Assembly (NCBI GenBank): GCA_029259055.1
Contig: JAPDJP010000012.1
Span: 59,883-123,882 of the forward strand
Direction: 5' to 3'
DNA length: 64,000 nt
DNA from: Thermoplasmatota archaeon
GTDB taxonomy: Archaea; Thermoplasmatota; E2; UBA202; JdFR-43
Of the stretch, positions 3,236 through 33,392 are shown piece by piece (positions within the stretch are counted from its first letter, which is position 1; every line of letters begins with the position of its first letter). Under the pieces are notes generated by a model. That model ran no database searches. It saw only the letters and a list, made by a program, of their open reading frames with translations, and was not told where the DNA came from. Position numbers and translations under genes: made by a program.

Positions 3236-4261
3236 ATGAGATATGTAAAGATTTATAATGAAAAAATGCAGGAATTCTTGGAAAGATTGAAAAATTATGG
3301 TAAGTTATATGCTCCAGTTAAAATATCAGATAAATTTTATGATAGAAAGGAAATTGATGATGTTAAAAAAATTTCTTTTGATTGTCTCCGCACAATAATG
3401 CCAGCAAAAAAATTTTTTATTCCTCCATATGAAGAGTTATTTGAAATTGATATCGAAAATGCTGATTATAAAGAAAAAATTGAGGAAACCGAGCCTTTTG
3501 TTTTATTTGGTTTGCATGCATGTGAAATTGTTGCACTACGTATATTAGATGGAGTATACTTAGATGAATTTCCTGATATATATTATGCAAATAGAAGAAA
3601 AGCGGGTATAATAATTGGATTGAGTTGTTTACCAGATGAATATTGTTTTTGCAATCTGACAAGAACTGACTTCGTTGACATAGGTTTTGAACTTTTCTTA
3701 CACGAATTACCAGATGGCTATTTAATTAGAGTAGGAAGTCCAAAAGGGCATAAAATAGTTGATGAAAATCCAGATTTATTTTCGGAAGTTAAAAAGGAAG
3801 ATATAGATGCTTTTAAAATGTTTGAAGAGAAGAGGCAAAAATTGTTCAAATATTATGGAAGCTTTGATAATATCAGGTATATCTTGGAATTAACAATGAA
3901 GGATAAAATATGGGATGAGGAAGCAGAAAAATGCTTAGGATGCGGAAATTGCACAATGACTTGCCCAACTTGTAGGTGCTATGATGTGCAAGATATTCCA
4001 GATATAGATGGAAAGCATGCAAAAAGAATAAGATTCTGGGACTCATGCCAGTTTAGGAGCCACGGGTTGGTGGCGGGAGGACACAATTTTAGGCCGACAA
4101 AAAAAGATAGGTTCCTAAACAGATATATATGCAAAAACGCGTATTTCTATCCTTTAGGAACTTCCTATTGTGTTGGATGCGGAAACTGTACTTATTTCTG
4201 TCCAGCAAATATTAATTTTCTGGAGAATTTAATCGAAATAAGGAGGGGAATAAATGCATGA
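3236..4261 (+). CDS. hydB: Sulfhydrogenase-type hydrogenase beta subunit (Fe-S subunit, HydB/AsrA-like)
   Basis: 341 aa with two ferredoxin-like clusters, [16 protein letters not shown] and [12 protein letters not shown]. First gene of a four-gene operon; its stop overlaps the next start. Confidence 0.75.
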
Positions 4262-5111
4262 AAATAAAGGGAATGTTTATTCCTTATATAAATGTAGAGT
4301 GCTAAGGGTTTATGATTTAACAGATGATGTAAAATTATTCCTATTTAGATTTGAAGACCCAGATATAGCGGAAAAATGGACATTTATACCGGGACAATTT
4401 GTTCAACTTTCCCTTCCAGGATATGGGGAAGTACCAATTTCTATTTGCTCTTCCCCTATGAGAAGGGGTTTTTTTGAATTATGCATAAAAAAAGCTGGAA
4501 GAGTTACAAGTAAAATTTTTGAATTAAAACCTGGAGATTTTGTTGGAGTGAGAGGACCGTATGGAAATGGTTTTCCAATGCAAGAATTTGAGGGAAATGA
4601 TATGCTATTAATTGCATGCGGAATAGGTATGGCTCCTTTACGTTCAGTTTTTATGTATGCATTAGATAATAGATGGAAATTTGGAAATATTACAGTAATA
4701 AATAGTGCAAAATATGGAAAAAATTTGCTATTTAAAAAGGAGTTAGAAGCCATGCGAGATGTTGCTGAAGCGGAAAACATAAGAATAATACAGACCGTAA
4801 CTCGCGACCCCGATTGGCCTGGAAGAATTGGAAGGGCGCAGGAACATATAAGATATGCGAATACTAGACCGGATAAATCTTATGTTTGTCTTTGTGGCCC
4901 TCCTCAAGCATATCATGATATATTTACGAAGCTTATTGAACATGGATACAATCCAAAAAGAATATATGTTACTTTGGAGAGAAGGATGAAATGCGGTGTC
5001 GGCAAATGCGGGCATTGTATAGCTGGGACATCAACATTCTTAAAGTACATATGTATAGATGGTCCTGTATTTGGGTATTATGATATAATTTCAACACCAG
5101 GGTTAATATGA
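4254..5111 (+). CDS. hydG: Sulfhydrogenase gamma subunit (FAD/NAD(P)H-binding, PyrK/AsrB-like, C-terminal 2Fe-2S)
   Basis: 285 aa. Ferredoxin-reductase-like fold with C-terminal CGVGKCGHC motif. 8-nt overlap with hydB, 4-nt overlap with hydD. Confidence 0.8.
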
Positions 5112-5869
5112 AGAAGCTAAAAATTGGTGTACATGGTCTAACTTCCTGTTATGGCTGTCAGCTAAAAATGGCTAGTCTTAAGCTTGCGGAGAATATTGAA
5201 ATAGTGTATTGGAATATGCTATCAAGTAAGGGAGAAATAGGTAAAGTAGATGTTGCTTTTGTAGAAGGAAGCGTAAGTACGGGAGAAGATGAAGAAGAAT
5301 TAAAAAAGATAAGAGAAAATGCAGACATACTGGTGGCTATGGGAACTTGTGCAACACATGGTGGTGTGCAGGGAGTAATTTTTGGGGAGGATTATAAAAA
5401 ATGTTTTAAAGAAATATATGGGGATAACAATATAGAGTTTGATGGAAGAATAGGAGAACCAATAAAAAAATATGTTAAGGTTGATTATAATTTGCCGGGT
5501 TGTCCTCCAGAAGAGGATGAAATTCTTTATTATTTAGCCACCTTCGCATTGGGGAGCTACCCGGAAGAAAAGGATTATCCAGTTTGTGCTGAATGTAGAA
5601 GGAATGGCTATCCATGTATATTAATAGAAAAAAATAAGCCCTGTTTAGGCCCGTTAACAGTTGCTGGATGTAAAGCAAGATGTTTAAAGTATGGGATAGA
5701 ATGTACAGGATGTAGAGGACCATTGCCACACAATATTGCATGGTTTGATTCTTTAGCCAGAACATTTAAGGAAAGAGGTATGAGCAAAGAATTTATTAAA
5801 TCAAAAATGGAAATATTTGGTAAGCAATATGAAAACATGGAAGAGCTAATAAATAAGGTGTTTGAATGA
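5108..5869 (+). CDS. hydD: [NiFe] hydrogenase small (delta) subunit
   Basis: N-terminus KIGVHGLTSCYGCQL and GTCATHGG, characteristic of group-3 NiFe small subunits / NuoB-like proteins. Distal Cys cluster CAECRRNGYPC...CLGP...GCKARC. Confidence 0.85.
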   Translation: MKKLKIGVHGLTSCYGCQLKMASLKLAENIEIVYWNMLSSKGEIGKVDVAFVEGSVSTGEDEEELKKIRENADILVAMGTCATHGGVQGVIFGEDYKKCFKEIYGDNNIEFDGRIGEPIKKYVKVDYNLPGCPPEEDEILYYLATFALGSYPEEKDYPVCAECRRNGYPCILIEKNKPCLGPLTVAGCKARCLKYGIECTGCRGPLPHNIAWFDSLARTFKERGMSKEFIKSKMEIFGKQYENMEELINKVFE

Positions 5870-7134
5870 AGATTTATAGAGAGATAAAGATTGACCATCT
5901 GGCTAGAATAGAAGGAAAGGCAGGGATAGTTGTGGAAATTGGGGAGGAAGTAAAAGCAAGAGTAAATGTTACAGAAGGACCAAGATTTTTTGAATTGATT
6001 ACGAGAGGAAAAAATTATAATGATGCTGCTTCCATTTGTTCCAGAATTTGCAGTTTTTGTTCCATTCCCCATAAACTAACACCTATTGAAGCAATAGAAA
6101 AAGCTTTGGACATTGAAGTTACAGAGCAAACCAAAATTTTGAGAAAAATCCTCTATTTTGCGAATATAATCGAGAGTCACTCCTTACATCTTTTTCTTTT
6201 TGCTATGCCAGACTATCTCGGTTATCCTGATGCATTTTCTATGGCAAAAAAATATCCAAAGTTAATGAAAACCGGCTTGGAATTGAAAAATTTTGGAGCG
6301 GAGGTTCAAAAAATAATTGGGAGTAGAGAAATTCATCCAGAAAATGCAATTGTTGGTGGATTCGGGAAATTGCCATCTCAAAAGGATATGGAAAAAATAA
6401 GAAAAATGGCAAAAGAAAATTTAGAAAGAGCAATAGCAACTGTAGATTTTTTTGCAGAATATGAATACCCCTCATATACAAAAATGGAAAGAAAGCATTT
6501 ATCAATAGATGGTTATGAAGCCTACGGAAATAAGATAAAAGCAACTGATGGAAACGAATTTTCTATAGAAGCATATAAAGAGAATATTGAGGAAGAGGTT
6601 GTTTCTTATTCATTTGCAAAAAGAGGAAAATATAAAGGGGAGCCTTTTATGACAGGAGCTATCTCAAGAATTGTCAACAATATGGAATTTTTGGAAGGAG
6701 AAGCAAAAGAATTGGTCAAAAAATATGAAGATTTTATTGATTCTAAGAATTGCTTTGCAAATAATTTCGCTCAAGCTATAGAACTTGTTTATTTTACGCA
6801 AAAAATAGGAGAGCTATCTAATATAAAAATAAAAGAAGAAAGAAATGTTGACATTGAAAAGAAAAATGGCAGAGGAATTGCTGTTACTGAAGCTCCTAGA
6901 GGATTGCTTATTTATGAAGTTGAAGTTGAAAATGAGAAAATTAAATATATGAATGTTATAACACCTACCGCTATGTTGCTTCCGATGATGGAAATAGATG
7001 CTATAAACATGGCCAAAGGATTATGGGAAGATGGTTATAAAGATATAGATTTAATAGGAAAAAAGATAGAAATGGTTGTAAGGGCATATGACCCTTGTAT
7101 ATCATGTAGTGTGCATGTAATTAATAAAAAATGA
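5866..7134 (+). CDS. hydA: [NiFe] hydrogenase large (alpha) subunit
   Basis: 422 aa. N-terminal RICSFCSIPH (RxCxxCxxxH-type Ni ligand motif) and C-terminal DPCISCSVHV (DPCxxCxxH), the two NiFe-site motifs. Confidence 0.9.
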   Translation: MKIYREIKIDHLARIEGKAGIVVEIGEEVKARVNVTEGPRFFELITRGKNYNDAASICSRICSFCSIPHKLTPIEAIEKALDIEVTEQTKILRKILYFANIIESHSLHLFLFAMPDYLGYPDAFSMAKKYPKLMKTGLELKNFGAEVQKIIGSREIHPENAIVGGFGKLPSQKDMEKIRKMAKENLERAIATVDFFAEYEYPSYTKMERKHLSIDGYEAYGNKIKATDGNEFSIEAYKENIEEEVVSYSFAKRGKYKGEPFMTGAISRIVNNMEFLEGEAKELVKKYEDFIDSKNCFANNFAQAIELVYFTQKIGELSNIKIKEERNVDIEKKNGRGIAVTEAPRGLLIYEVEVENEKIKYMNVITPTAMLLPMMEIDAINMAKGLWEDGYKDIDLIGKKIEMVVRAYDPCISCSVHVINKK

Positions 7135-8219: not shown

Positions 8220-8220
8220 G

Positions 8221-8436: not shown

Positions 8437-8478
8437 GATATGATAAGAAAATTTGCTTTATAAAATTAATGTTATTAT

Positions 8479-16791: not shown

Positions 16792-17585
16792 AATTTGCAG
16801 ATGCCGAGCAGGGTTACGAGGAATCCCATTTTATTATTTTTGGCATACCATATGAAGATGAAGAAATGTCATTTCGTAATGGCACAAAAGAGGCACCAGA
16901 TTTTATAAGATATGTAAGCTGGGACTATGAAAGCTACAATATAACAAACGGCATCGATTTACAAGAAATACCAATACATGATGCAGGAAATCTTGGTATA
17001 GAAGAAGCTACACGATTCATAAGAAGGGTAATAAAGGATGGAAAAATACCAATTGCTATAGGAGGAGCGCATTCCATCACTCCTTTTCTAATTTCTTCTT
17101 TAAAAAATACAATAGATTTTGGCGTCGTCATTTTAGATGCCCATTTAGATTTTAGGGATGAGTATATGGGTGATAAAAAAAGCCATGCTTGCACAGCAAG
17201 AAGAATTTATGAGTTGGTTGGAAAAGAAAAAATTATTTCTTTAGGAGTAAGGTCCGCCTCTAAAGAGGAAATAGAGGATGCAAAAAAGCTTGGATTTATT
17301 TATTATTCCTCATTGAACAGCGATATAAATTTTGATAAAATTTATTTAAGTATCGATATAGATGTATTCGACCCATGTTATGCGCCAGGCGTAAGCAATC
17401 CGGAGCCTATGGGCTTAGGATATGAAGTATTGGATTTTATTAAAAATTTAGCTGGGAAAGTAATTGCATTGGATGTGGTAGAGGTTTGTCCTCCATATGA
17501 TGATGAAAGAGCTTCTTTATTGGCGGCAAAGCTTATAAGAGATTTTATAACATGGAAAGTTAGTTATAAGAAATTTGGAAAGTAA
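16788..17585 (+). CDS. speB: Agmatinase (arginase/ureohydrolase family)
   Basis: 265 aa with arginase-fold Mn-binding segments GGAHSIT, DAHLDF and SIDIDVFDP. Conserved archaeal neighbour of aIF5A. Confidence 0.85.
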
Positions 17586-17946
17586 TGGTTTTTATTGTTT
17601 CGTTATTTCCAGCATTATCTATACTGTAATATTGAAGTATATGCGAACCTTCTTCTGAAATAACTAATTGATTTGTATATTCATTCCAACCCTCATTATC
17701 TAAGTTATATAGAGTTACATTTACACCCGAGTGTTCATCATAAGATTCCAGCGAAATGTAAACGGTTTTTCTATATATCCCTCCTATACCAATCCCACTT
17801 ATTATAACGTTTGTTTGCGGAGACAAGGTATCAACTTTTATTTGGATGGATTTAGTTATTTCTTTATTTCCTGCCCAGTCAATGCTATAAAAATAAATTT
17901 CGTGTATCTCATCTTCTGATAAATAGAAAGGTCCATTATATGTCAT
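17560..17946 (-). pseudogene. Apparently frameshifted 3' portion of the upstream gene, carrying Ig-like YSxDxAGNxE repeat domains. Together with 17993..20410 it would form a single ~930-aa gene.
   Basis: Its reading frame stays open upstream of its ATG to 18015 (..FHFTATDDLTTPTTYYKIDNGQWMTYNGPFY..), overlapping the end of the 805-aa frame. Two copies of the YxSIDxAGNxE motif. The T4 and A4 homopolymer runs lie in the 20-nt overlap. Confidence 0.5.
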
Positions 17947-17992
17947 CCACTGGCCATTATCTATTTTATAGTAGGTGGTAGGAGTTGTTAAA

Positions 17993-20410
17993 TCATCGGT
18001 TGCAGTAAAATGAAATTAAAACATCACTTATATACCATCCGTTATTTCCCATAATACCACCTATATTACATAATGTAGTAGGTGGTGTTGTATCTTCAAC
18101 GAGTGGTAAATAATCTCCTCCATTCATATTTCCATTACAATTGTAAGGAATAAGGGTGTCCCCTATTCCGTCATTATTTGTATCTATACCCATATAATCT
18201 GACCAATAGTTTCCACCTAAATATGGTCCCCCCACTATATTCTTACCGGCTATTTTAGCAATATTCCATATATTTGTTCCACTGGTGCATTCGCAAGCAT
18301 TTATTGTGTTATTGAAATAATTGTTGTATATTAGATTATCTATAGAGGAGGGTAAGCTTATTCCTACATTGTTCTCAAATATGTAATTGCTAATTATTTT
18401 ATTCATACAGCACTGCATTAATAAAATACCCTGGCCATTACAATATATTCTGTTACCAATTATTCTAATATTTGTACAATCTTCTACTAAAATACCAACA
18501 CTATTGTTATATATGGAATTATTTTTGATTAGTGGGAATAAAATACTATTACTCATCCAGCAACTATCCTTTATGTATATACCTTTGTCGTTATTATAGA
18601 TGTTACAATTCTTAACAATTAATCTATGATGTCCTCTTATAAAAATGCCATATAATCCATTTTTAATTGTTAAATTCTTTATTATTGCATCTGCCGAAAT
18701 ATTAAATACTGGTTTTGTGGTGTTTCCGATAATGATGGCATTTTTACTATTCCCGATAATATTTATCTCCTTATTTATTTTGATACTTTCGTTATAGATA
18801 CCACTAAATACGTAAACTGTTCCACCTTCTGCAACTGCATCTATTGCATCCTGTATTTTATCAAAATGATTATATTGCCATCCAGGAGTATAGTAATTGA
18901 AATCATCATCTACGTATACGGTTGTTGGAGGAGAAAAATGCTTTGTTTCAAGACTTAAGGAAGGATCTCCATAGAGAATATAATCGTATAAATTTCTAAG
19001 GCGTTTTATCATTGTTTTATTACTTTCTTGGCTAAAATTATTTTGGGAACAATATCTCAAAGTATAATTATACTTTGCATCATATAATGCCTCTCCCACA
19101 CTTTTACCATCAATTAGTTCTTCGAAGAAATAACATACTAAATCTTGCAAACCGTCTCCTTTCTTTTCCCACCATGGTGTGAAATGGCTGGGACGTGTGG
19201 CTCCAATATATGCAACAGCTCCATTACGGAGAAGACGGACACCTAATGAGCTTATATTTGGAGTTGCGGTCCAGCAAGCAAAAGCAAAAACAATGCTATC
19301 ATTATTTAACATAGAAGTTGAGGCAGTATCAATGAATGGTATATCTTCTAATTCGAAAGATTGTGGTACATGATCTCCACAATAAATAATGGAATATGGG
19401 GGTATTATTTGAGCATGGGGAGTATCATATTTCCAGATATGACGGTATGCTGCCCGCTTGCCGCCATGCGATTGCCAAAAGACAATTCCATAGCCTTTAT
19501 TCCACTCATTAATTACATTTGTATAGTTTAAAGAATAATCGCCTATATAAGTAGAAGGATCTACGCCTTCGGTTTCATACATTGTTGTGACGCTATAATT
19601 TTGTAGGATATTATCTTTCAGATATTCACATAAAGTAGCGCCATCGGTTTTGCAATTAAATATTTTTCCACCTCTATTTTCATTTTTATAAACTAGAATA
19701 GCTCCAAGTAGCAACGCTTTTTTCTTCCATTCTCCGTCATCTTGTTCAAACTTTATGGTTCTATTCAGTATAGATCGTAAGATATCTAACGGATTATTAT
19801 TGGTATTGTTATTGATATTATTGATATTATTATTTATATTACCTATGTTATTAATATTTATCTCAACATTATTTGAATTAATGTGAATGGGTATCCTACC
19901 TACATAAACATCCGGCTTAGGCTCAAAACCAAAATTAACAAAATTTTCGTATGCACCTGGTGGATCTCCCCAATCTATTGTTAAATTTACATAATAATAG
20001 TCAGTTGGTATGTCCCGATAATTTTTTTGGGTTTCATTTGGGTCTACACGGAAAGTTTTCATTGGAATGGTATCGTTATCACCGATTATCAAAACATATT
20101 TTATGCCCCATGGTTGGGAATAATTTTTTAGGAAATTCCTTATCTTCTCCTGCAGATTATCACCAGTAAAGGCATTGTCAATCCAAGAAATATTCACTAT
20201 TTTAACTGAGTGACCAGTTCCCCATTTCCAGACAGAGAAATTTATTATTGCTGGAACGAGTTTATCCACAGTTATTATAACATAATCATATTTTGGAAAA
20301 TTTATGCATGTGCTTATATGTATGGATGGGCTCGTAAAACCTTTGCTAATTGGAGGGATACCTATTAATAGCATACAACAGACTACCACCATCCATTTCT
20401 GCCCTTTCAT
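17993..20410 (-). CDS. Large secreted protein: signal peptide, peptidase C25 (gingipain)-like domain, Asn-rich low-complexity linker, parallel beta-helix repeats. The C-terminal part continues in ORF 17560..17946 after an apparent frameshift.
   Basis: 805 aa. Signal peptide MKGQKWMVVVCCMLLIGIPP. C25-like motifs KYVLIIGDNDTIP, WQSHGG and FAFACWT. Repeated beta-helix-like segments (NCNIYNNDKGIYI..., NNSIYNNSVGILV..., GNRIYCNGQGILL...). Confidence 0.55.
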   Translation of the reverse strand: MKGQKWMVVVCCMLLIGIPPISKGFTSPSIHISTCINFPKYDYVIITVDKLVPAIINFSVWKWGTGHSVKIVNISWIDNAFTGDNLQEKIRNFLKNYSQPWGIKYVLIIGDNDTIPMKTFRVDPNETQKNYRDIPTDYYYVNLTIDWGDPPGAYENFVNFGFEPKPDVYVGRIPIHINSNNVEININNIGNINNNINNINNNTNNNPLDILRSILNRTIKFEQDDGEWKKKALLLGAILVYKNENRGGKIFNCKTDGATLCEYLKDNILQNYSVTTMYETEGVDPSTYIGDYSLNYTNVINEWNKGYGIVFWQSHGGKRAAYRHIWKYDTPHAQIIPPYSIIYCGDHVPQSFELEDIPFIDTASTSMLNNDSIVFAFACWTATPNISSLGVRLLRNGAVAYIGATRPSHFTPWWEKKGDGLQDLVCYFFEELIDGKSVGEALYDAKYNYTLRYCSQNNFSQESNKTMIKRLRNLYDYILYGDPSLSLETKHFSPPTTVYVDDDFNYYTPGWQYNHFDKIQDAIDAVAEGGTVYVFSGIYNESIKINKEINIIGNSKNAIIIGNTTKPVFNISADAIIKNLTIKNGLYGIFIRGHHRLIVKNCNIYNNDKGIYIKDSCWMSNSILFPLIKNNSIYNNSVGILVEDCTNIRIIGNRIYCNGQGILLMQCCMNKIISNYIFENNVGISLPSSIDNLIYNNYFNNTINACECTSGTNIWNIAKIAGKNIVGGPYLGGNYWSDYMGIDTNNDGIGDTLIPYNCNGNMNGGDYLPLVEDTTPPTTLCNIGGIMGNNGWYISDVLISFYCNR

Positions 20411-20628
20411 AAACGGAATTTTTTAAAAAATTTAAAAATTTATTGCATCAATACATCCTATAAAAAATGGCATAAAAAAGTATAGTTAGGAATATAAACA
20501 AAATTATTGAATATTCTATGGCAAATTTTATATTGTAAATAATAAAGGTTGTACATATCGCAAGAGATGTTAAAAATGATAGGAAAAGAGGCATCACTAT
20601 CCTAAATTTTTTTATTAGCATTTTTATA

Positions 20629-21801
20629 TTACATTAGATATTTCTTCGCTAAAACTAATAGAGAAGGTTTCTTTATCAATTTTTTTATGAAAAAGTTAAG
20701 TTTTGCCTGTGTCAAGGCATATATATCTTCTCCCTGTAAAATCTCCGCCAATAATTCAAAATCTTTATCTTCCAACTTTTCCAAAAAAGCTCTAAGTTTC
20801 ATTAACTTCTTCGTTTTTTCTCCGTATTCTTCCTCCCATTTCTTTTCGTATTCCTTTAATCTTTCTTTTGATAAGTCATTTTCTTTTAAAGCTTTATTCG
20901 CGACCTCAGCAGCCATTAATGAGGAATGAATAGCTCTGTAAATACCCCCACCATGGATTGGATTCACAAGTTGAGCAGCGTCCCCAACAAGCATTACACC
21001 ATCTGTAACCATTTCCGTAAAATGGGCAACTGGTACTCCACCCGCATTTATTTCAATTGGCTGTGCATTTCTAAAGATTTCTTCGTGCTCTTCTATAAAT
21101 TTTTTAAGATAGTCATATGCCCTCATTTTTGCTTGTTTTACCAATATTCCAAGGCCAACATTAAAAGAAAAAGCTTTTGGAAAAATCCATGCATAGCCCA
21201 GAGGAGCAACTTCTCTTCCAAAAAATATGTGAATATATTTATTTTCTATGTTCAAACCAGCCATTTCAAATTGTATGCCCGAATGATAATCTGTAATTTT
21301 ATTTGTAGTATTCAAACCAGCCCATCTTCCGACCTTGCTTTCTACCCCATCTGCTCCAACAACAAGTTTTGCTTCAATTTCTTTTATACCTTCTATTGTT
21401 TTAACTTTTAATAGCCAGTTACCATTTTTTCTTTCCATATCTATTGCTTGAGCTTTAACCATATATCTTGCTCCTTCTTTTATTGCCTCTGCTGCCAACC
21501 ATTTTTCAAATATTTTTCTTTCCAATACATATCCTTCCATTTCCTCTCCTTCCATGAGCACTTTTTTGCCAGATGGAGAATAAAGTATTGCTCCCTTTAT
21601 TCTACCAAAAATACATAAAGGATGAATCTTCATTTCTAGCTTATCTAAGCCATGCTTTGTAACTCCTTCAGCACATCTTTTTGGGCAACCAATCTCCTGT
21701 TTTTTCTCAACCACCAAGACATCATAACCATAAGAAGCCATTTCTTTAGCCATTACACTCCCAGCTGGACCAGCTCCAACTATTAAACAATCTACCTTCA
21801 T
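20629..21801 (-). CDS. Geranylgeranyl reductase (digeranylgeranylglycerophospholipid reductase, FAD-dependent)
   Basis: 390 aa. N-terminal dinucleotide-binding motif DCLIVGAGPAGS and the conserved CPKRCAEG-type Cys motif. Length and architecture are typical of archaeal GGR. Confidence 0.85.
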   Translation of the reverse strand: MKVDCLIVGAGPAGSVMAKEMASYGYDVLVVEKKQEIGCPKRCAEGVTKHGLDKLEMKIHPLCIFGRIKGAILYSPSGKKVLMEGEEMEGYVLERKIFEKWLAAEAIKEGARYMVKAQAIDMERKNGNWLLKVKTIEGIKEIEAKLVVGADGVESKVGRWAGLNTTNKITDYHSGIQFEMAGLNIENKYIHIFFGREVAPLGYAWIFPKAFSFNVGLGILVKQAKMRAYDYLKKFIEEHEEIFRNAQPIEINAGGVPVAHFTEMVTDGVMLVGDAAQLVNPIHGGGIYRAIHSSLMAAEVANKALKENDLSKERLKEYEKKWEEEYGEKTKKLMKLRAFLEKLEDKDFELLAEILQGEDIYALTQAKLNFFIKKLIKKPSLLVLAKKYLM

Positions 21802-21802
21802 T

Positions 21803-21967
21803 TTATCCCTCTAATGCTCCAACGGGGCAAAATTCGACACAGGTTCCACAATCAACGCATTTTTCATTTATTTCGATTCTAATCTCATGCAGTGTAATTG
21901 CATCTACTGGACATACGCCAACGCATCCTCCACAATATAGACAGGCATCATAATTTATCTTTACCAT
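21803..21967 (-). CDS. Small 2x[4Fe-4S] ferredoxin immediately upstream of (and co-oriented with) GGR; not in the ORF track
   Basis: Manual translation of the minus strand gives [54 protein letters not shown]. Its stop is 1 nt before the GGR ATG. Confidence 0.75.
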
Positions 21968-22021
21968 CGTTCAAAAAATACAGAAAGTTTTTATATTTTC
22001 CTATCTTCAAAAACTTTATTT

Positions 22022-22798
22022 ATGCATCACCCATATAATCATATGTTGCTTGAAATAGCTATTCTAATTATATTTTTGCTTATAATAATTCTTGCATCAG
22101 CAATAAAAATTGTAAGAGAATATGAAAGAGGTGTAATATTTAGGCTTGGGCGCCTTGTTGGGGCAAAGGGGCCCGGATTATTTTTCATTATACCAATTTT
22201 TGATAAAATGGTGAAGGTCGATCTGAGAGAGCATGTAATGGATGTTCCAGTGCAAGAAGCAATTACTTCAGACAATGTTCCAGTTAGAGTAAATGCTGTT
22301 GTTTATTTCAGAGTAATGAATCCAGAAGATGCTGTAGTAAAAATACAAAATTACATGATAGCAACAAGTCAAATGGCTCAAACAACTTTAAGGAGCATAA
22401 TTGGGCAAGTAGAATTGGATGATTTGCTTAAGGAAAGGGAAAAAATTAATCAACGCTTACAAGCCATACTGGATGAAGCAACAGACGCATGGGGAGTAAA
22501 AGTTACAGCTGTGGAGATAAAAGATGTTGAAATTCCAGAAGGTATGCAACGTGCCATGGCAAGGGCGGCGGAAGCTGAGAGAGAAAGGCGGAGCAGAATA
22601 ATAGCAGCAGAAGGTGAGTTGCAAGCAGCAGAAAAATTAACACAAGCAGCAAAAATTATAGCAAGCGAGCCTGCTGCTATTCAACTTAGAACATTACAAA
22701 CTTTGGCTGAGATATCTGCGGAAGGCACAACAAAGATTTTCTTCCCGTTTCCATTGGAATTAATAAAGCCTTTCTTACAAGAAAAGGAGAAGAAGTAG
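22022..22798 (+). CDS. SPFH/band-7 (stomatin/prohibitin-like) membrane protein
   Basis: N-terminal TM helix, then a PHB domain (...[42 protein letters not shown]...) and a C-terminal coiled-coil with [10 protein letters not shown]. The true start is probably the internal Met (MLLEIAIL..). Confidence 0.85.
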
Positions 22799-22824
22799 GC
22801 TAAAGATTCATAGATTCTAAAGAT

Positions 22825-24936
22825 TCATAGATTTATAATGAATACTTCCCTCTCATCCCACTCACTTTTTCCATTTGTTGCATATGCAACAACCTTTATT
22901 TTATATTCTCCTCTTGCTTTTTCATCCCATTTCCACTCAAAAGGCTCGTTCGAAACAGTTACCTTTAGCTCATCATTTATATAGAAATTAACTTTTTCTA
23001 ATTTTCCTGGTGGATCTGTTTCAACATTTACTTTAATTGTTATGCCACCAAGTATTATTGTCTTATTGATAAAACTGAAAAATGGGCCCCTATCTATTAC
23101 ATACAAACCATTTAATGGTTTAGTGATTTCTAAGCTTATGTTTATTTTTTCTTCAGGTTCTTTTATAGCTACTTGAGGGTCTCCAAATAAGTTTGTTTGA
23201 TAATACGTCCATCTCATTCCATTTTCATTTATTCTCCACACGTTATCTTCCTTAGAAAAATGATTTGCCCTTCCTACTTCTTTTATATCCTCTTCAAATA
23301 ATCCTTTGAAGAAGGATAAATCATATCTCTGGCCAGGAGAATCCGTACTATTTTCTCTTCCTAATCCATAACGAGAATTCATAATACAAGCAAAAGCTCC
23401 GTATTCATCACATGTTAAATGCTCTGCAAAACAGTCATCTTCATAATATCTATCTTCAGGATACCAGTTATCGAAAGAGCCAGCTAAGCAGGTTTGCGAA
23501 TATAAAAAGAAATATTTAGTGTTATGTAAAAGCTTCAAATCACTATTATGAAGTTTCAATGCATAAGTGGTCCATCCGTGCCCATCATGATTTATGATGT
23601 GTACTCCATTATTTATAACATCTGCCAAATTATATTTATCCCAATACATGAGTTTATCATACATTCTAGTTATATTGTATACGGGAGGAATCAATTTCAT
23701 AACTTCATCTTTATGATTTCCTCCCCATTCCGCCTCCCCGCCAAATCCTAAATATTCTCCAAGTAAAAGAACCTGTATTATGTAATTATCAGTAGTTTCT
23801 TCATACGAAATTGTTTTTTGAATAAAATTATTTACCTCCTTTATGTTATCAACGCAAGCTCTCCCGACCCATACTTCTGCGAATAAATCCGCTTCATCGC
23901 CATTTCCTTTGCTATTTTCAGTTGCATTTTCTCCCCATCTTGTATCATGGTCATTATTAAAGCTTCCATCTAAACAGGCATAGTATACATCAGATGGAAT
24001 ATACGCTTCTAAAACATCTTGATTATCTAAAGGCAAACCAACGGATGTTGCATATAAATAGCGGGGTGGTATTATATTACTGCTCTCATTTTTAATATCT
24101 CCATCCCCTCCTAACAAAACATAATCTATTCCCCAATTTAGATAGGCATATCTGATGAAATTTCTTATTTTTGCCTGAGTATCATTAAACATTCTCGTCT
24201 TATTCCAAAAATCTTTATTGTTAACGATTTCTTCAACACTTACAATTTTTGTTTTTATCCCTTTACTTTCTTTATACTCTGCAAGTTGCTGAAAAGCTTC
24301 TTTAAAATCATTAGCTGTTATTATCAAATATTCGTATTCTTCTAAAGCATCTTTAGTTGGGTATGTATCAATTATCCATGGATTATAAACAAATTTTCTA
24401 ATCCATTCTTTATCTTTCTTTAATCCCCTATACAATGGATTTACTTTTCCCTCCTTAAGCTCTATCTCCACTTTTATTTTATCTCTATAAAAAATTTTTC
24501 CATTATCATATGAAATTGGAAATATATTCATAACCAGTATATTATAACCTCTCAGCCCATATATGCCCACTTTTTCGTATAATTTTTCTATTTTGTTTCC
24601 ATGCTTTATTTCTATTTTTCTTCCTTTTATTATGATGGGTTTTTCCTTCTCTAAATTATAATTTCCTATAAATTTCTCTTCACCTTTTACAACTATCTTT
24701 TTTACATCTTTTTTAAAAGGTAATAAAATATAAACCGGCTTAACTGGTATCAACAAACCTTTATAATTATATGGATAACAACCTTCCAATTCTATTCTAT
24801 ATTCATTTCCTATCCGTTTTATTGTTGGTTTATCAAATTTAAATTCTAAAAGTATTTTTTCTTCCTTGGCAAAAGATGGAATAATTGTTGCTAAAAGCAT
24901 TATCATAACCATAAAACAAATTAACTTTTTTGTCAT
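22825..24936 (-). CDS. Secreted peptidase C25 (gingipain)-like protein with C-terminal Ig-like/beta-sandwich domain
   Basis: 703 aa. Signal peptide MTKKLICFMVMIMLLATIIPSFA. C25-like motifs DYVLLGGDGD...IPP, HIINHDGHGW (His) and SQTCLAGSFDNW (Cys). Confidence 0.55.
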   Translation of the reverse strand: MTKKLICFMVMIMLLATIIPSFAKEEKILLEFKFDKPTIKRIGNEYRIELEGCYPYNYKGLLIPVKPVYILLPFKKDVKKIVVKGEEKFIGNYNLEKEKPIIIKGRKIEIKHGNKIEKLYEKVGIYGLRGYNILVMNIFPISYDNGKIFYRDKIKVEIELKEGKVNPLYRGLKKDKEWIRKFVYNPWIIDTYPTKDALEEYEYLIITANDFKEAFQQLAEYKESKGIKTKIVSVEEIVNNKDFWNKTRMFNDTQAKIRNFIRYAYLNWGIDYVLLGGDGDIKNESSNIIPPRYLYATSVGLPLDNQDVLEAYIPSDVYYACLDGSFNNDHDTRWGENATENSKGNGDEADLFAEVWVGRACVDNIKEVNNFIQKTISYEETTDNYIIQVLLLGEYLGFGGEAEWGGNHKDEVMKLIPPVYNITRMYDKLMYWDKYNLADVINNGVHIINHDGHGWTTYALKLHNSDLKLLHNTKYFFLYSQTCLAGSFDNWYPEDRYYEDDCFAEHLTCDEYGAFACIMNSRYGLGRENSTDSPGQRYDLSFFKGLFEEDIKEVGRANHFSKEDNVWRINENGMRWTYYQTNLFGDPQVAIKEPEEKINISLEITKPLNGLYVIDRGPFFSFINKTIILGGITIKVNVETDPPGKLEKVNFYINDELKVTVSNEPFEWKWDEKARGEYKIKVVAYATNGKSEWDEREVFIINL

Positions 24937-26828: not shown

Positions 26829-29800
26829 CTATTTATGTTTTCTCCTTACCAAAAATATTGCTAAAGCCATTGCTATTGCAATAGCCAGTAATTCAAATCC
26901 TGGTGTTTCTGGAGCTGATTGCACATCTATTGTCTTTCTTGCTGAATAATACCCTTCTTTTTCTGCTGTTATAGTAATTGTGCCCTCCTTTTCAGGTGTA
27001 TATTTTATCTCTCCATTTGAATCTGTTGTTCCTATTGCCGCTCCATCTACTTTTACAAGAACACCATCAACAGGCTTACCTCCTCTGGTTGTAACTAGTA
27101 TTACTGCTTCCTTTCCTTTAACAAGCTTCTCTACAACGATTTGTAAACCGATCATTACATCTATTTCTCCAACTGCCTCTCCTTCTACTAATATCTTTAT
27201 TTTACCAGTTTGTAATGGTATTATACCAAATATTGCCTTTCCATTTTCGTCTGTTTCTCCTACCTTTATAGCATTTCCTCCACTTGTTGGAGTTATTATT
27301 TCGACATCAAGGCCAGCGCATCCTTCATTTGTTAATGGGTGTGTCACAACAATTGTTATCAGATTTTCTACACCTAAAAATGCTACTTTTTCTTTTGGTT
27401 CTTCAATTGTAACAGCTGGTGTAGTTACCTTTAGCACACCATACGCCTCTGCATATTCTCCTCCATCGGGCTTGAATTCGAAAGTAATATTTCCTACGTT
27501 AACTGCTGTAACATTTGTAATATTTCCTTTTCCATTTACTATATCGATGGTAATATTCTTACCAGCAACATATGCTTCATAACTTGCAACTTCCATTATT
27601 CCATATGCTTTCAGTGTACCATTAACTGGCTCATTCTCCCATGTTACTGTAAATGTTAATGTGATTTCCTTGTCAACATTTTTAACCAATAACCTTGGCT
27701 CAACACTTACACTTGCTTTTGTAACTTCAAATGATGGTTCCTTTCCAGTTTCAATATCATGTTTCCTATCTTTTGTACATACATATAGATAGTATTTTCC
27801 TGGCTCAGTTATTATATAATTTTTGAGTGTATAGTTTCCTTTACTTACCCTCGCAACAAGATCTGTTACATTGATTCCAACATCCTCAACATTTTTGCCT
27901 TCATGGAATTTTGTTAAAGCAGTTTCATTTAATATGTAGAAGTAGAAGTTTCCATCATAGCTCTTATTATCTTTAGTTATATTAATTTCATAATCTTGCT
28001 TGCTTCCAACTAATACTTTATCTGGAGAAAGAATAACTTCCAAATCATGAGCAGCCTCAGACGCAATGCATGCATAAGCGTATTGGACATCTGGCGCTCT
28101 AAATACTGCCATCGCAACAATATTAACTCCTGCTTTATCTGGTGTTATATTGGTAAATACAAATTCTCCTTGAGCATTGTATTCATTTTCTTTTTCTTTA
28201 ATCTTTTCCCATCCCACGGTACTTTCATAATAAGGAGGTATTTCATAGTATAAAATCAGATAATCAACTAAATTGATGGCATTACCTTCTGCTGTTTTTA
28301 CTATTGCTGAAATGTTATAAGTGTTGTCAACAATAACTTCTGTTGGACTAACTGTTAAATCTCCTCCCTTTACAATATTAACTACTTTTCCATCTTCTCC
28401 TTTATCAGGCCATGTAACATTTACATAAATCTTTCCATTTCCTTTTGTTGGAAATACTTTTATTTCCCAAGTACCTGTTGAATTATTAAATTCATATGCT
28501 CCTGGCGGTGGCGAATACAATATATCTCCTTCTATTTTGATAATGTCTGTAATATCTGCCCAATTTGTTAAATTAAAGGCATCTGGTGAACCAATTTCAT
28601 CAATTGACTCTCCATATATTTTAACATATAACACCCAAGTATTATTTGCTAAGTCTCTAACAGAAATATTCTCTGGTGTTACATATACATTGACTTTTGG
28701 AGGAGCAACAACTTCAAATGTTGTTTCTCCCACATACTCATATGTTTCATTGTCAACCATACTATTTCCTTCATAATTCTGTTTAATTCTTAATGTCCAT
28801 GTTCCTTTTTCTGGCCATTTCGCCTCAATTGCTAATTTGTAAGTATCTGTCAAAGATATGTTAAATACTTCTCCCATAACAGTTATTGAAACCGGCCCTT
28901 GTGTCAAATCAACATCTCCTGTGCTGTTTGATTCCTCTCCAAATGCTATTGTAATATTCGTTGGTTTTGACCAATCTATTGATACATTTGTATCATTATA
29001 TTTAACAATAAAGATTTTCTTACTTGGGAATCCCTGTCTTGCTTCGTCAGTAGAAACATCGGAGAATATTAACGTATTTGGCAATATCTTTGCCCATGCA
29101 TATCCTCCAAGCTCTGGAGTTGCATCTCCAGTAGTGTTTTTACTTGCAGTAATATTAAATATACCCACGCCCGGCAATCCCATAACATTTATTGTAAAGT
29201 TTGCTCCTGTTTGGTCTATAATGAGTTGGTCAGCTACGTTGTTATTGCCATTTTCATCAATCCAATATGTTACAATTTGGGCACCTTCTACATATTTTCC
29301 ATCCTTATCTTTAATTGTTACATCAAAATTATATCCCTCTGTTTGGCTCTTCTTTTGTTCAAATATGTAATGGGTTGGTGAAATTTCTATTGTTAGAGGT
29401 GATGGATTAACTTTAAAGAATATCTCCCATCCTTGTCCAACATCCTTTATTATCCAATTTCCTACGGTATCTAACAAAATATTCTCAAAAGTTGCCCTTC
29501 CTTCACTATCCGCTCTTCTTTGGGCAACTCTTTCCGTTTCTCCCGGCTTCCACAACTCTATTGTATCTCCAGGTGTCGCATTATAAATTTCCATAGTTAC
29601 TGTTTCTGTATAGTTAGCGGAAGAAGGTCTAACCTCAAAATTAGGAATAATCGTAAAGTTAAATTCTGCCGATTTATTGGTATTGCCATACATATCTTCT
29701 GCCCATATGTAATAGGTATATAAACCAGTAGTGTTATAAGAAGCATTGTAATAATAGCTTCCCTGATTCATTGTCTTATTTACATGGAATCCCTCTGGTC

Positions 29801-30497
29801 CGCTAATATCAACTTTTACAACCGTAACAGCAGTATTATCAGTTACATTGCAAGTTATATTTACATATTTTGTCGCTTTTTGTTGTTGTGGAGTTGCTTT
29901 TACCTCAGTTATTACTGGCGGGATAATATCCCATACGCTGTTTAACGCTCCTGGTGTTCCTCCTTCTACCAGGCTTTGCTTCCATTCATTATCAACTGTT
30001 CTTTCTGCGCTATAATTTTCAGCATAATTACCTGGATAATGTACAGAGTCCACTAACTCTCCTATTGAATTAGATAAATTTACCCAACCTCCAGTATCTG
30101 CTAATGATGTCCAATTTCCTTGTAAAATAGGGCAAGTAATATCTGGATAGCGACTCTGGAAGGCTGTTATGTTTTTTGCTACTATTAAATATTCGTTTCC
30201 GTCCAATATTCCGCTTAATACTGTATTTCCTCCAATTGTTCCATTTATAACCCATCCTGTTATATTTACTTCCTCTGTTCCGAGATTATAAATTTCTATC
30301 CATTCATAATCATCTGAACCTGCTGGATTATACATTATTTCATTAATTACAACATTTGTAGCTAATGCAACTGTTGCTCTATTTGCTGGAAATATTGCGA
30401 ATGCGCTTGCTATTATAGCTGCTATAATTACCAAACTTCCAACCTTTTTAATTAGCCTTTTTCCATACATTTTATTCCCCCTTCTATAAGTTGGCAT
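26829..30497 (-). CDS. Giant cell-surface protein: N-terminal signal/TM, lamin-tail domain (LTD), multiple Ig-like / carboxypeptidase-regulatory-like domains, C-terminal PGF-CTERM archaeosortase sorting signal
   Basis: 1222 aa. LTD signature VINEIMYNPAGSDDYEWIEIYN. C-terminus ...SAPETPGFELLAIAIAMALAIFLVRRKHK (PGF plus TM helix plus basic tail). CarboxypepD_reg-like ITAEKEGYYSARKTIDV. Confidence 0.75.
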   Translation of the reverse strand: MPTYRRGNKMYGKRLIKKVGSLVIIAAIIASAFAIFPANRATVALATNVVINEIMYNPAGSDDYEWIEIYNLGTEEVNITGWVINGTIGGNTVLSGILDGNEYLIVAKNITAFQSRYPDITCPILQGNWTSLADTGGWVNLSNSIGELVDSVHYPGNYAENYSAERTVDNEWKQSLVEGGTPGALNSVWDIIPPVITEVKATPQQQKATKYVNITCNVTDNTAVTVVKVDISGPEGFHVNKTMNQGSYYYNASYNTTGLYTYYIWAEDMYGNTNKSAEFNFTIIPNFEVRPSSANYTETVTMEIYNATPGDTIELWKPGETERVAQRRADSEGRATFENILLDTVGNWIIKDVGQGWEIFFKVNPSPLTIEISPTHYIFEQKKSQTEGYNFDVTIKDKDGKYVEGAQIVTYWIDENGNNNVADQLIIDQTGANFTINVMGLPGVGIFNITASKNTTGDATPELGGYAWAKILPNTLIFSDVSTDEARQGFPSKKIFIVKYNDTNVSIDWSKPTNITIAFGEESNSTGDVDLTQGPVSITVMGEVFNISLTDTYKLAIEAKWPEKGTWTLRIKQNYEGNSMVDNETYEYVGETTFEVVAPPKVNVYVTPENISVRDLANNTWVLYVKIYGESIDEIGSPDAFNLTNWADITDIIKIEGDILYSPPPGAYEFNNSTGTWEIKVFPTKGNGKIYVNVTWPDKGEDGKVVNIVKGGDLTVSPTEVIVDNTYNISAIVKTAEGNAINLVDYLILYYEIPPYYESTVGWEKIKEKENEYNAQGEFVFTNITPDKAGVNIVAMAVFRAPDVQYAYACIASEAAHDLEVILSPDKVLVGSKQDYEINITKDNKSYDGNFYFYILNETALTKFHEGKNVEDVGINVTDLVARVSKGNYTLKNYIITEPGKYYLYVCTKDRKHDIETGKEPSFEVTKASVSVEPRLLVKNVDKEITLTFTVTWENEPVNGTLKAYGIMEVASYEAYVAGKNITIDIVNGKGNITNVTAVNVGNITFEFKPDGGEYAEAYGVLKVTTPAVTIEEPKEKVAFLGVENLITIVVTHPLTNEGCAGLDVEIITPTSGGNAIKVGETDENGKAIFGIIPLQTGKIKILVEGEAVGEIDVMIGLQIVVEKLVKGKEAVILVTTRGGKPVDGVLVKVDGAAIGTTDSNGEIKYTPEKEGTITITAEKEGYYSARKTIDVQSAPETPGFELLAIAIAMALAIFLVRRKHK

Positions 30498-31099: not shown

Positions 31100-32110
31100 T
31101 TATTCATACCAAGTCCATAAATTATGGGCAAAAAAATTCCATATAAAAGCTACTGATATTCCTACAATATTTGCTTTTAATGGATGTATGCCAATTTTTA
31201 CAAGCATAAGGAGAATGATAACATTTAGGGATAAGCCTACTAAACAGGCGAAATTAAATTTTCCTAGTCTTTTTAAATATTCTTTAAGTTTTTTCTGTCC
31301 CCTGTCTTTGAAAGTCCATAATTCATTCAATAAAAACGTCCACAAAATCGAAGTTTCAACGCTTATAAGACTTGCTAATATAAGAAAAAAATTGTATTTT
31401 AATAATAACCATAAAAGAAACTCATTTAGCAAAACCCCACTGCCTCCAACTATTCCAAATTTAAAAAACCGATGAATCTCCCCTTCTTTCCATGCAATCT
31501 TTAATAGATGGCGAGAATATTTTGAATAACTTTCTTTTGTTTTTATAGCATTTTTTAAATGAATAGGTATTTCTTTTACGTTTTCATATTTTCCTTTATG
31601 AAGGATTTCAAGAAGGATTTTTGAACCTAAGGGACGAATCTTTATATCTTTTATTACCTCTCTTCTAAACATAAAAATTTCTGAAAGAGGGTCATCAACG
31701 ATTCTGCTTTTTGGAAATAGCAAATTAACAAAAATTTTTGCTATCGAAGATTTATTCTTCCTTTTACCTATAACTAAATCGGCTCCATTTTCTATTATTT
31801 CTTTCATTTCTGCTACACATTTTTCAAAATTCTTCAATTCATCATTTAATAAAGCAATATAATCTCCGTTACTTATTTCAAAGCATTTTATAATAGATGA
31901 CGCCAGATCATTTTCCTTAATAAATTTAACATTTCTTATATTATTTTTAATTGACTCATCCACTTTAAATGGTTTACCTATAATAAAAATTTCATGAGCA
32001 TGTTCAGCAACTTTATCAATAATATTGCATAAAATGTTAGGATTTTTTCCATGTAAAATTATTGTAATTTTTTTTACTTCCTTATTTTTATTTATTTCCC
32101 TCGCTCTCAA
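31100..32110 (-). CDS. Glycosyltransferase family-2-like domain fused to a GtrA-like transmembrane domain (dolichyl-phosphate sugar synthase-like architecture)
   Basis: 336 aa. C-terminus FKFGIVGGSGVLLNEFLLWLLLKYN...LWTFKDR is GtrA-like. N-terminal Rossmann-like region with a weak, non-canonical DXD region. Confidence 0.5.
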   Translation of the reverse strand: MRAREINKNKEVKKITIILHGKNPNILCNIIDKVAEHAHEIFIIGKPFKVDESIKNNIRNVKFIKENDLASSIIKCFEISNGDYIALLNDELKNFEKCVAEMKEIIENGADLVIGKRKNKSSIAKIFVNLLFPKSRIVDDPLSEIFMFRREVIKDIKIRPLGSKILLEILHKGKYENVKEIPIHLKNAIKTKESYSKYSRHLLKIAWKEGEIHRFFKFGIVGGSGVLLNEFLLWLLLKYNFFLILASLISVETSILWTFLLNELWTFKDRGQKKLKEYLKRLGKFNFACLVGLSLNVIILLMLVKIGIHPLKANIVGISVAFIWNFFAHNLWTWYE

Positions 32111-33392
32111 CCCTCCTCACCTTTAAAACGAGTCTATTTTGTCCAACCACAATGATTTCCTCCCCTTTGTTTATTTCTTCCTCCGCCTCAGCCTGCCAAA
32201 TTTCTCCTTTTACCTTTACTTGCCCTTTTCTTTTTATATCTGTTATTGCTATTCCTTTTTCTCCAACCAAATCTCCTTCCCCGATTTTCGGTTTCACTTT
32301 TCTTGCTTTTATTGCTTTTGCTAAAGCATAGGAAAAGAAAATCGTTAGAAATATTGCTATAACTAAACTTGCTATTCTGAAAGTTGTAAACCAACTTAAA
32401 GGCATTTCGTGCATTGCTTCCCCAGCTGGAATTAGCATTATTCCAAATATAAGGGTAATGATTGCTGCGGTTGTCCAAAAGCCGAAAGTCGGGGTTAGAG
32501 CTTCTATTATGAAAAAAATGATTGCTAATGAAATCAATAAAATACCAGTAACGTTTATTCCAATATATGATAAACCATATAAAGATAAAATAATGCAAAT
32601 TGCTCCTATTGTTTCAGGTAAATGAAAACCAGGCGTCATAAATCCAAATATCAAGCCAAACAATCCTATTATTAAAAGTAAAGATGCGATTTGTGGGTCT
32701 GATAAATAATTTATGAATTTATCTCTTATTCCCCATTTTATATATTCAATTTTTACATTTTTTATTATAATTTTATTGGAATTGATATATGTCCCATTTA
32801 TTTTTTTAATTAACTCTTCAACATCATTTGCAATATACTCAATTACATTTGCTTCTAAAGCTTCCTTTTCATTTAAAGCTGTATTATTTCTTACAAATTT
32901 TTCAGCCATTGTTGCATTTCTTCCATGAGCTAAAGCTAAAGATTTAATTAAGGCAGCATATGCATTTATTTCCTTTTCATCTGCTTTTTCGGGCAAACCA
33001 GTTGCGGGATTTATTAAACGAGGTTGACAAGCTCCGATAACTGTTGCGTTTGCCATCGCTGCAATATCAGATGCCATTAATATGAAAGTGCCGGCGGAAA
33101 AGGCGTTGGCGCCTGAGGGGGCGACATATATTATAACTGGTACTTTCGCATTTTCAATCTTTTTTATAATGTTTTCCATTGAATTTGCCAATCCTCCATT
33201 TGTATCTAGCATTATAATTAAAGCAATGCCATCTTTTTCGGCGGTGTTTATTGCTTTTTCAAATTGATTTTCTGTTCCTCTACCAATCATTCCCTCTATC
33301 TTCGCTACATATATTTTTTGTGAATTCACAGCATTTACTAAAGTATTTATCGAAAGGAATAAAATCATAAATATTATGAATTTCTTCATCAT
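32088..33392 (-). CDS. NfeD-like membrane-bound ClpP-class serine protease (stomatin operon partner protein family)
   Basis: 434 aa. Signal peptide, ClpP-like domain (...IIMLDTNGGLANSM...APSGANAFSAGTFILMASD...), 4-5 TM helices, C-terminal OB-fold (GEIWQAEAEE...). Confidence 0.75.
   Translation of the reverse strand: MMKKFIIFMILFLSINTLVNAVNSQKIYVAKIEGMIGRGTENQFEKAINTAEKDGIALIIMLDTNGGLANSMENIIKKIENAKVPVIIYVAPSGANAFSAGTFILMASDIAAMANATVIGACQPRLINPATGLPEKADEKEINAYAALIKSLALAHGRNATMAEKFVRNNTALNEKEALEANVIEYIANDVEELIKKINGTYINSNKIIIKNVKIEYIKWGIRDKFINYLSDPQIASLLLIIGLFGLIFGFMTPGFHLPETIGAICIILSLYGLSYIGINVTGILLISLAIIFFIIEALTPTFGFWTTAAIITLIFGIMLIPAGEAMHEMPLSWFTTFRIASLVIAIFLTIFFSYALAKAIKARKVKPKIGEGDLVGEKGIAITDIKRKGQVKVKGEIWQAEAEEEINKGEEIIVVGQNRLVLKVRRVESEGNK

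Follow-up and report, generated by a model that had tools for sequence, protein, structure and literature searches.

Two probably secreted, gingipain-family (C25) cysteine peptidases encoded by an uncultured Thermoplasmatota archaeon

A 64,000-nucleotide stretch of contig JAPDJP010000012.1 (the window), from an uncultured, low-GC (about 31%) Thermoplasmatota archaeon, encodes two large proteins that we refer to as P1 and P2. We conclude that they are two paralogs, both of them cysteine endopeptidases of clan CD, family C25 (the gingipain family), and that they are probably secreted. Their assignment to the family, with its fold and its catalytic dyad, is close to certain when taken by itself. 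The whole explanation, of two secreted C25 peptidases with a digestive role, we put at a probability of about 0.6. The P1 open reading frame (ORF) spans 805 amino acids (aa; 17993..20410, minus strand) and that of P2 703 aa (22825..24936, minus strand), in agreement with the lengths and coordinates given in an earlier note made from this sequence alone. The features of the two genes, in window positions, are as follows.

17560..20410, minus strand: P1 full gene, 949 aa when intact, split here into 805-aa (17993..20410) and 128-aa (17560..17946) ORFs
20339..20410, minus strand: P1 putative Sec signal peptide, aa 1-24 (MKGQKWMVVVCCMLLIGIPPISKG), the sole hydrophobic segment, modeled as an N-terminal helix followed by a low-confidence linker
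18950..20284, minus strand: P1 Peptidase_C25 catalytic domain, aa 43-487 (PF01364; Foldseek match to RgpB)
19796..19882, minus strand: P1 Asn-rich low-complexity insert within the catalytic domain, aa 177-205, 29 residues (INSNNVEININNIGNINNNINNINNNTNN)
19466..19468, minus strand: P1 catalytic His315, in WQSHGG, codon verified
19274..19276, minus strand: P1 catalytic Cys379, in FAFACWT, codon verified
18188..18835, minus strand: P1 right-handed parallel beta-helix (NosD-type), aa 526-741 (Pfam NosD 2.1e-35, Beta_helix 3e-18)
18007..18010, minus strand: P1 frameshift site, found by DNA alignment, four T residues here and three in a second assembly (L008)
17563..18055, minus strand: two C-terminal OmpL47-type, immunoglobulin-like (Ig-like) beta-barrel domains of P1 (NCBIfam NF047446), the first interrupted by the frameshift
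22825..24936, minus strand: P2 gene, 703 aa, with signal peptide, prodomain, C25 catalytic domain, and Ig/Fn3-like domain
24868..24936, minus strand: P2 putative Sec signal peptide, aa 1-23 (MTKKLICFMVMIMLLATIIPSFA), the sole hydrophobic segment, modeled as an N-terminal helix
24442..24858, minus strand: P2 N-terminal beta-sandwich prodomain, about aa 27-165, resembling gingipain prodomains
23170..24330, minus strand: P2 Peptidase_C25 catalytic domain, aa 203-589 (PF01364; Foldseek matches to RgpB and Kgp)
23578..23580, minus strand: P2 catalytic His453, in DGHGW, codon verified
23488..23490, minus strand: P2 catalytic Cys483, in SQTCLAGSF, codon verified
22828..23142, minus strand: P2 C-terminal Big_7/Fn3-like (Ig-like) beta-sandwich, aa 599-703 (Pfam Big_7 3.4e-7)

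Both proteins match the Pfam Peptidase_C25 model (PF01364) far above its curated cutoff of 23 bits. P1 scores 141.2 bits (6.7e-41; aa 43-487, model positions 1-374 of 374) and P2 scores 216.3 bits (9.9e-64; aa 203-589, model positions 1-372 of 374), which bears out the earlier note's reading of both as C25-like. The sequence of P2 alone aligns to the gingipains RgpB (1cvr) and Kgp (4rbm) in the PDB. A direct phmmer search of the PDB with P1 returned beta-helix (NosD) matches only and no gingipain, and its gingipain match required the family profile. Compared with RgpB, the P1-family profile gives an E value of 1.8e-14 and the P2-family profile one of 6.3e-13.

AlphaFold2 models built from 35-sequence alignments place a caspase-like (clan CD) alpha/beta fold in both proteins, with a mean predicted local distance difference test score (pLDDT) of 86.8 and a predicted template-modeling score (pTM) of 0.86 for P2, and 83.1 and 0.84 for aa 1-500 of P1. 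When the models were searched against the PDB with Foldseek, the best match of P2 was RgpB (1cvr, 4.4e-21), with Kgp (4rbm) at 3.2e-18, and the best match of P1 was again RgpB (1cvr, E value of 1.7e-17, TM-scores of 0.55/0.64). The leading matches across both models were 1cvr, 4ief, 4rbm, and 6i9a, and the gingipains were followed in the P1 search by other caspase-fold (clan CD-like) proteases, namely, SAVED-CHAT, Craspase, MALT1, and caspase-8. RgpB and Kgp are thus the top structural neighbors of both models in the kind of structure comparison that the earlier note had proposed.

The short motifs that had first drawn attention to the two proteins do contain the catalytic dyad, which the alignments place at H315/C379 in P1 and H453/C483 in P2. 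In P2, the motifs DGHGW and SQTCLAGSF start at aa 451 and 480, and both direct sequence and family-profile alignments pair “NHDGHGW” with “NYTGHGS” of RgpB (H453 on H211) and “YSQTCLAGSF” with “FDVACVNGDF” (C483 on C244). In P1, where WQSHGG starts at aa 312 and FAFACWT at aa 375, the P1-family profile pairs H315 with the histidine of the RgpB GHG motif. HMMER set the P1-family Cys against another RgpB Cys because the P1-type subfamily carries about 30 extra residues between His and Cys. The equivalence of the P1 Cys therefore rests on a profile-profile alignment (hhalign) of the P1 and P2 families, which has a probability of 100 and an E value of 1.3e-46 and equates H315 with H453 and C379 with C483. 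The dyad is conserved throughout the 120 best homologs of each protein: the His in 120/120 and the Cys in 119/120 for P1, the remaining sequence having a gap, and both residues in 120/120 for P2. Each protein has a C25 and caspase-fold match and its His and Cys fall in register with the dyad, the two points on which the earlier note had let its reading stand or fall.

The spacing of the dyad differs between the two proteins: 64 residues separate His from Cys in P1, 30 in P2, and 33 in RgpB, and the insert of about 30 residues is common to the whole P1-type subfamily. By their sequences, long-spacer (P1-type) and short-spacer (P2-type) subfamilies of archaeal C25 thus appear distinguishable. 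The GDxD...IP loop also noted earlier is present in both proteins (GDNDTIP at aa 110 of P1, GDGDIKNESSNIIP at aa 277 of P2) and has a counterpart in RgpB (“GDHKDIP”), but its strict conservation extends to the P2 family only, where D278 and D280 occur in 119/120 and P290 in 118/120 homologs. In the P1 family, the Pro alone is invariant.

P2 has the layout of a classic gingipain zymogen. Foldseek matches its N-terminal beta-sandwich to the RgpB prodomain (chains 4ief_E/C/G/A, 7e-8 to 2e-7, TM-scores of 0.59 to 0.62) and the Kgp prodomain (5mun, 3.5e-6). The P2-family profile finds the latter by sequence as well (5mun_A, E value of 3.6e-6), and Pfam Propeptide_C25 (PF08126) is present in several P2 orthologs. 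The C-terminal sandwich resembles the Fn3-like modules of CbhA (3pe9, TM-score of about 0.8). Since the arrangement is that of RgpB minus the sorting domain of the type IX secretion system (T9SS), we infer that P2 is made as a latent zymogen. P2 has one N-terminal hydrophobic segment, no other, and no C-terminal anchor. Other assemblies call P2 as a 695-aa protein from Met9, a start with which the basic MTKK n-region is lost; judged by its sequence, the 703-aa start looks the more plausible fit to a signal peptide.

P1 is built differently. Its C25 domain starts at aa 43 in both the Pfam match and the AlphaFold2 model, directly after the N-terminal hydrophobic segment, and it therefore has no prodomain. 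As in P2, this segment is the only hydrophobic one, and there is no C-terminal anchor. A lipobox reading of the “VVVCC” in P1 was dropped by eye, as position -1 is not occupied by a small residue. The Asn-rich insert is encoded by ATT/GAT tandem repeats, stands out as an insertion relative to both the P1- and P2-family profiles, and is predicted to be disordered (pLDDT of <50 at aa 182-203 in the model). The beta-helix matches NosD in the PDB (7o0y, 6e-7) and passes the PF05048 cutoff (122 bits versus 23.6), but it fails that of the NosD family model TIGR04247 (86-87 bits versus 300), which indicates a shared fold and not a NosD function. The OmpL47-type model (NF047446, cutoff of 40) matches an intact public P1 protein (P0241) in two stretches with 114.9 bits and the 128-aa fragment with 106.8 bits. 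The different C-terminal modules described in the earlier note, a beta-helix plus Ig-like part in P1 and a beta-sandwich in P2, are therefore recovered by the domain and fold matches.

The 805-aa ORF of P1 exists as first described, but it is not the whole gene, which encodes 949 aa and is interrupted here by an extra T. The 128-aa ORF continues the OmpL47-type barrel in the +1 frame (“...GWYISDVLISF|TATDDLTTPTTYYKIDNGQW...”), and deleting one T from the run of four restores a 949-aa protein. Looked up by exact sequence, neither the 805-aa nor the 128-aa ORF had a match, whereas an exhaustive HMMER search recovered the public protein P0241, which has 949 aa and is 100% identical over aa 1-802. 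A word-indexed homolog search with aa 1-500 of P1 missed this identical protein, as its scoring was limited to the 8000 candidates with the most words in common with the query, a list that the Asn-rich insert may have crowded. The 90%-identity cluster of P0241 holds two intact 949-aa versions from other assemblies (P0241 and P0377) in addition to an 805-aa and 128-aa pair, which is located on one NCBI contig 134,816 bp long.

Assembly L008 (SRR24791474), made independently from the same species, keeps the gene order of the window and shows 99.63% identity to it over 18.85 kb. Its positions 8001-10850 differ from 17560-20410 (minus strand) of the window by one indel, at the T run, and two substitutions, and its Asn-rich insert has the same length. 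The run of three T residues in L008, together with the intact public proteins, indicates that the real P1 gene is 17560..20410. Either the extra T is an assembly error, or the gene is truncated at strain level, with the loss of just the two terminal barrels. In a further assembly of the species (L004, Logan SRR22214790_1676), the contig stops short of P1, just past the neighboring geranylgeranyl reductase (GGR) gene (window position of about 20450), a sign that the P1 region may be difficult to assemble or strain variable.

These peculiarities of P1 raise the possibility that one or both proteins are noncatalytic, with the C25 fold serving a pseudo-protease as a binding or adhesin scaffold. 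The missing prodomain, the extra residues between His and Cys, the disordered Asn-rich insert, the adhesin-like C-terminal modules, and the frameshift in the window would all suit such a protein. We nevertheless consider it very improbable: the dyad is conserved in practically every homolog counted above, the spacer insert belongs to the whole P1-type subfamily and is not degenerate, and the frameshift, which two other assemblies lack, comes only after the catalytic and beta-helix domains.

P1 and P2 are best compared with RgpB and Kgp of Porphyromonas gingivalis (MEROPS family C25, clan CD; 1cvr, 4ief, 4rbm, and 5mun). They share the Pfam family, the caspase-like fold, and the His-then-Cys order, and P2 additionally shares the N-terminal inhibitory-type prodomain and the Ig-like domain after the catalytic domain. 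Gingipains are secreted, and P1 and P2 probably are too. Identity in the structural alignments is just 15-17%, however, and the route of export differs. Type IX secretion is a system of Bacteroidota (PMC5445135), and neither archaeal protein matches Por_Secre_tail or a T9SS C-terminal domain at an E value of <=0.1. They also lack the hemagglutinin/adhesin domains of gingipains and would instead leave their archaeal host by an N-terminal signal peptide. P1 departs further from the gingipains in its missing prodomain, its longer His-to-Cys spacer, its Asn-rich insert, and its beta-helix and OmpL47-type modules.

Closer in source are the exported gingipain-like C25 peptidases known from metagenome-assembled genomes (MAGs) and metatranscriptomes of Thermoprofundales/MBG-D (PMC6461988, PMC9585477, and PMC6752024), which share with P1 and P2 the phylum, the family, the export signal, and variable C-terminal Ig, PKD, or beta-helix modules. 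P1 and P2 differ in coming from a particular low-GC lineage, as does P1 in its three-part layout. C25 genes have been found in Thermoprofundales MAGs and are reported to be expressed as predicted extracellular peptidases, and the published expression table often lists several C25 sequences for one MAG (PMC6461988). The family has also been cited among the extracellular protein-degrading enzymes active in sediments (PMC9585477). In White Oak River estuarine sediments, C25 makes up 41-45% of the signal-peptide-bearing peptidase genes, and Arg-P1 endopeptidase substrates (P1 here being the substrate position) were hydrolyzed fastest (PMC6752024).

By analogy with the role proposed for the exported C25 peptidases of sedimentary Thermoplasmatota, P1 and P2 are most likely digestive. 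The single N-terminal hydrophobic segment of each is consistent with a signal peptide, so that both would be exported via the Sec pathway, P2 as a latent zymogen that becomes active once its prodomain is removed. The Cys thiolate and His imidazole would then cleave peptide bonds of extracellular proteins, while the C-terminal beta-helix and Ig-like modules may anchor the enzymes to their substrate or to the cell surface or envelope. Environmental (detrital) protein would in this way be converted to peptides for uptake and fermentation by the cell.

Several points weigh against this explanation. Signal peptide cleavage is judged from hydrophobicity only, and P1 has no prodomain that would keep it latent. 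P1 is frameshifted in this assembly and may be truncated or inactive in this strain. The Arg- or Lys-specific S1 pocket of gingipains is marked by D163 in RgpB and D516 in Kgp; in the sequence alignments, RgpB D163 lies within an insert that stays unaligned, and RgpB E152 lies two residues off the invariant E394 of P2, so that no S1 specificity is assigned to either protein. No peptide transporter or other proteolysis gene that would fit a nutritional role stands beside P1 and P2 among the scanned ORFs of the window. Lastly, no purified, biochemically characterized archaeal C25 enzyme was found in the literature searched. The earlier description of archaeal homologs as poorly characterized thus holds for their biochemistry, but not for their genomics, as exported C25 peptidases of Thermoplasmatota are abundantly documented.

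A different function is suggested by PorU, the C25-family sortase of the T9SS, which shares family and fold with P1 and P2 and acts at the cell surface. P1 and P2 could accordingly be surface-protein maturases or sortase-like transpeptidases acting on endogenous surface or S-layer proteins. P2 partially matches the PorU model NF033707 (60.7 bits) and PorU itself in Foldseek (6za2, 1.1e-10), P1 carries surface-type modules (the beta-helix and the OmpL47-type barrels), and a large surface protein is encoded about 2 kb away. This Lamin-tail-domain (LTD) protein (1222 aa; 26829..30497, minus strand) ends in APETPGFELLAIAIAMALAIFLVRRKHK, a PGF-CTERM-like tail that suggests a substrate of an archaeosortase; it also has a weak, subthreshold match to the Heimdall-CTERM model (E value of 0.0035).

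On the other side, the PorU matches of P2 are far under the cutoffs (60.7 versus 420 bits for NF033707 and 39.7 versus 450 for NF052324) and cover the C25 core only, and P1 has none. The structure of P2 is matched much better by RgpB and Kgp than by PorU (4.4e-21 versus 1.1e-10). Archaeal PGF-CTERM proteins are processed by archaeosortase A and are not known to be processed by a C25 enzyme, and the adjacency of the P2 region to the LTD protein is found only in the same-species assemblies L004 and L008. The large number of different C25 sequences, of which one MAG often has several in the published expression table, also fits a digestive family better than a single dedicated maturase. We therefore regard a maturase as unlikely, and the S-layer processing proposed in the earlier note found no supporting evidence in this analysis.

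A variant of this idea concerns P1 alone. Its missing prodomain, long His-to-Cys spacer, carbohydrate-binding-type beta-helix, and OmpL47-like barrels could mark a distinct archaeal C25 subtype, acting as a glycan-guided surface protease or PorU-like transpeptidase on the glycosylated envelope proteins of its own or neighboring cells. This is quite unlikely in our estimate; if true, C25-based surface sorting would have an archaeal counterpart in P1, which would then not be a bulk digestive enzyme.

The two proteins also differ in how widely their close relatives are distributed. P2 has 658 homologs at an E value of <1e-5, the best 120 of which span 72% to 39% identity. Among these 120, those named by source come from Thermoplasmata, Thermoplasmatales, or Thermoplasmatota MAGs, and several of the homologs listed are already named “C25 family cysteine peptidase.” The C25 domain of P1 reaches at most 40-47% identity outside its own species, and a scan of representative genomes with P1 gave a single match, of 40% identity, in the Thermoplasmatales MAG HyVt-387, and no close ortholog. 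C25 and beta-helix fusions occur in 7 other proteins among the 388 sequences fetched, in which the combination with two OmpL47-type barrels is confined to this species. The domain combination of P1 is a lineage-specific variant.

Between P1 and P2 lie four ORFs, namely, a 57-aa hydrophobic ORF and the following three genes.

20629..21801, minus strand: GGR (GGR_cat 1.2e-22)
21803..21967, minus strand: ferredoxin, 54 aa, 2x[4Fe-4S], with two CxxCxxCxxxCP motifs
22022..22798, plus strand: stomatin/SPFH gene (Band_7 5.2e-43)

The earlier note had pointed to the bracketing of this GGR-ferredoxin-stomatin block by the two peptidases, and one could suppose a functional unit of the five, such as a membrane-lipid or microdomain module combined with a protease. 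The five genes are adjacent in three assemblies of the species, namely, the window, L008, which has all five, and L004, which has P2, stomatin, ferredoxin, and GGR and ends before P1. The convergent P2-stomatin pair is also kept in a 67%-identical P2 ortholog (L002 and L003). In that ortholog, however, GGR, ferredoxin, and P1 are replaced by unrelated genes, and P2 orthologs of 62%, 59%, and 49% identity lie in unrelated contexts from which the stomatin neighbor is also gone. The four orthologous P2 contexts thus speak against an operon conserved with these three genes, which we reject. P2 and stomatin are convergent and hence not cotranscribed, orthologs of P1 in other species reach no more than about 47% identity, and NfeD, the usual partner of stomatin, is encoded elsewhere in the window.

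A functional unit is accordingly hardly credible, being largely refuted by the absence of conserved synteny. The loss of synteny in orthologs, the convergent orientation of P2 and stomatin, and the distant NfeD indicate that the position of P1 and P2 on either side of these genes is incidental. The bracketing carries no conserved or functional meaning, and all that survives of it is the P2-stomatin adjacency in one 67% ortholog.

A 17-bp perfect direct repeat (CTAAAGATTCATAGATT), in two copies (22800..22833), spans the short interval where P2 and stomatin converge at their 3' ends and could be a shared terminator element or chance. The NfeD1b-type membrane protease gene (32088..33392, minus strand) lies about 9 kb away from the stomatin gene and is not adjacent to it. 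A second, weaker GGR-like flavoprotein paralog is encoded at 50664..51716 (minus strand; GGR_cat 8.2e-6, under the Pfam cutoff). A four-gene cluster at 3236..7134 (plus strand) comprises a Fer4_22 protein, an FAD/NAD-binding subunit, and NiFe small and large subunits, and resembles, by sequence, a sulfhydrogenase-type cytoplasmic [NiFe] hydrogenase. The 20 other scanned window ORFs of at least 150 aa are housekeeping and energy genes, and no further C25 paralog was found among them or among the ORFs of the region itself. An Rfam scan of both strands of the 64-kb window gave zero families at the gathering threshold and thus no tRNA, rRNA, or riboswitch.

P1 and P2 are members of a family already known, annotated, and discussed in Thermoplasmatota, and the genomic observation is conceptually nothing new. 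What our analysis adds is a corrected gene model for P1, the mapping of both catalytic dyads, the contrast between a gingipain-type prodomain in P2 and none in P1, and the two spacer subfamilies. The frameshifted 949-aa gene model is a practical correction for the annotation of this genome. Exported C25 peptidases are regarded as a major route of buried-protein degradation in uncultured sedimentary archaea. With confident models and defined catalytic residues, P1, a prodomain-less beta-helix fusion, and P2, with its classic zymogen layout, are suited to heterologous expression, and a first characterization of an archaeal C25 peptidase, covering its specificity, activation, and thermostability, would be valuable.

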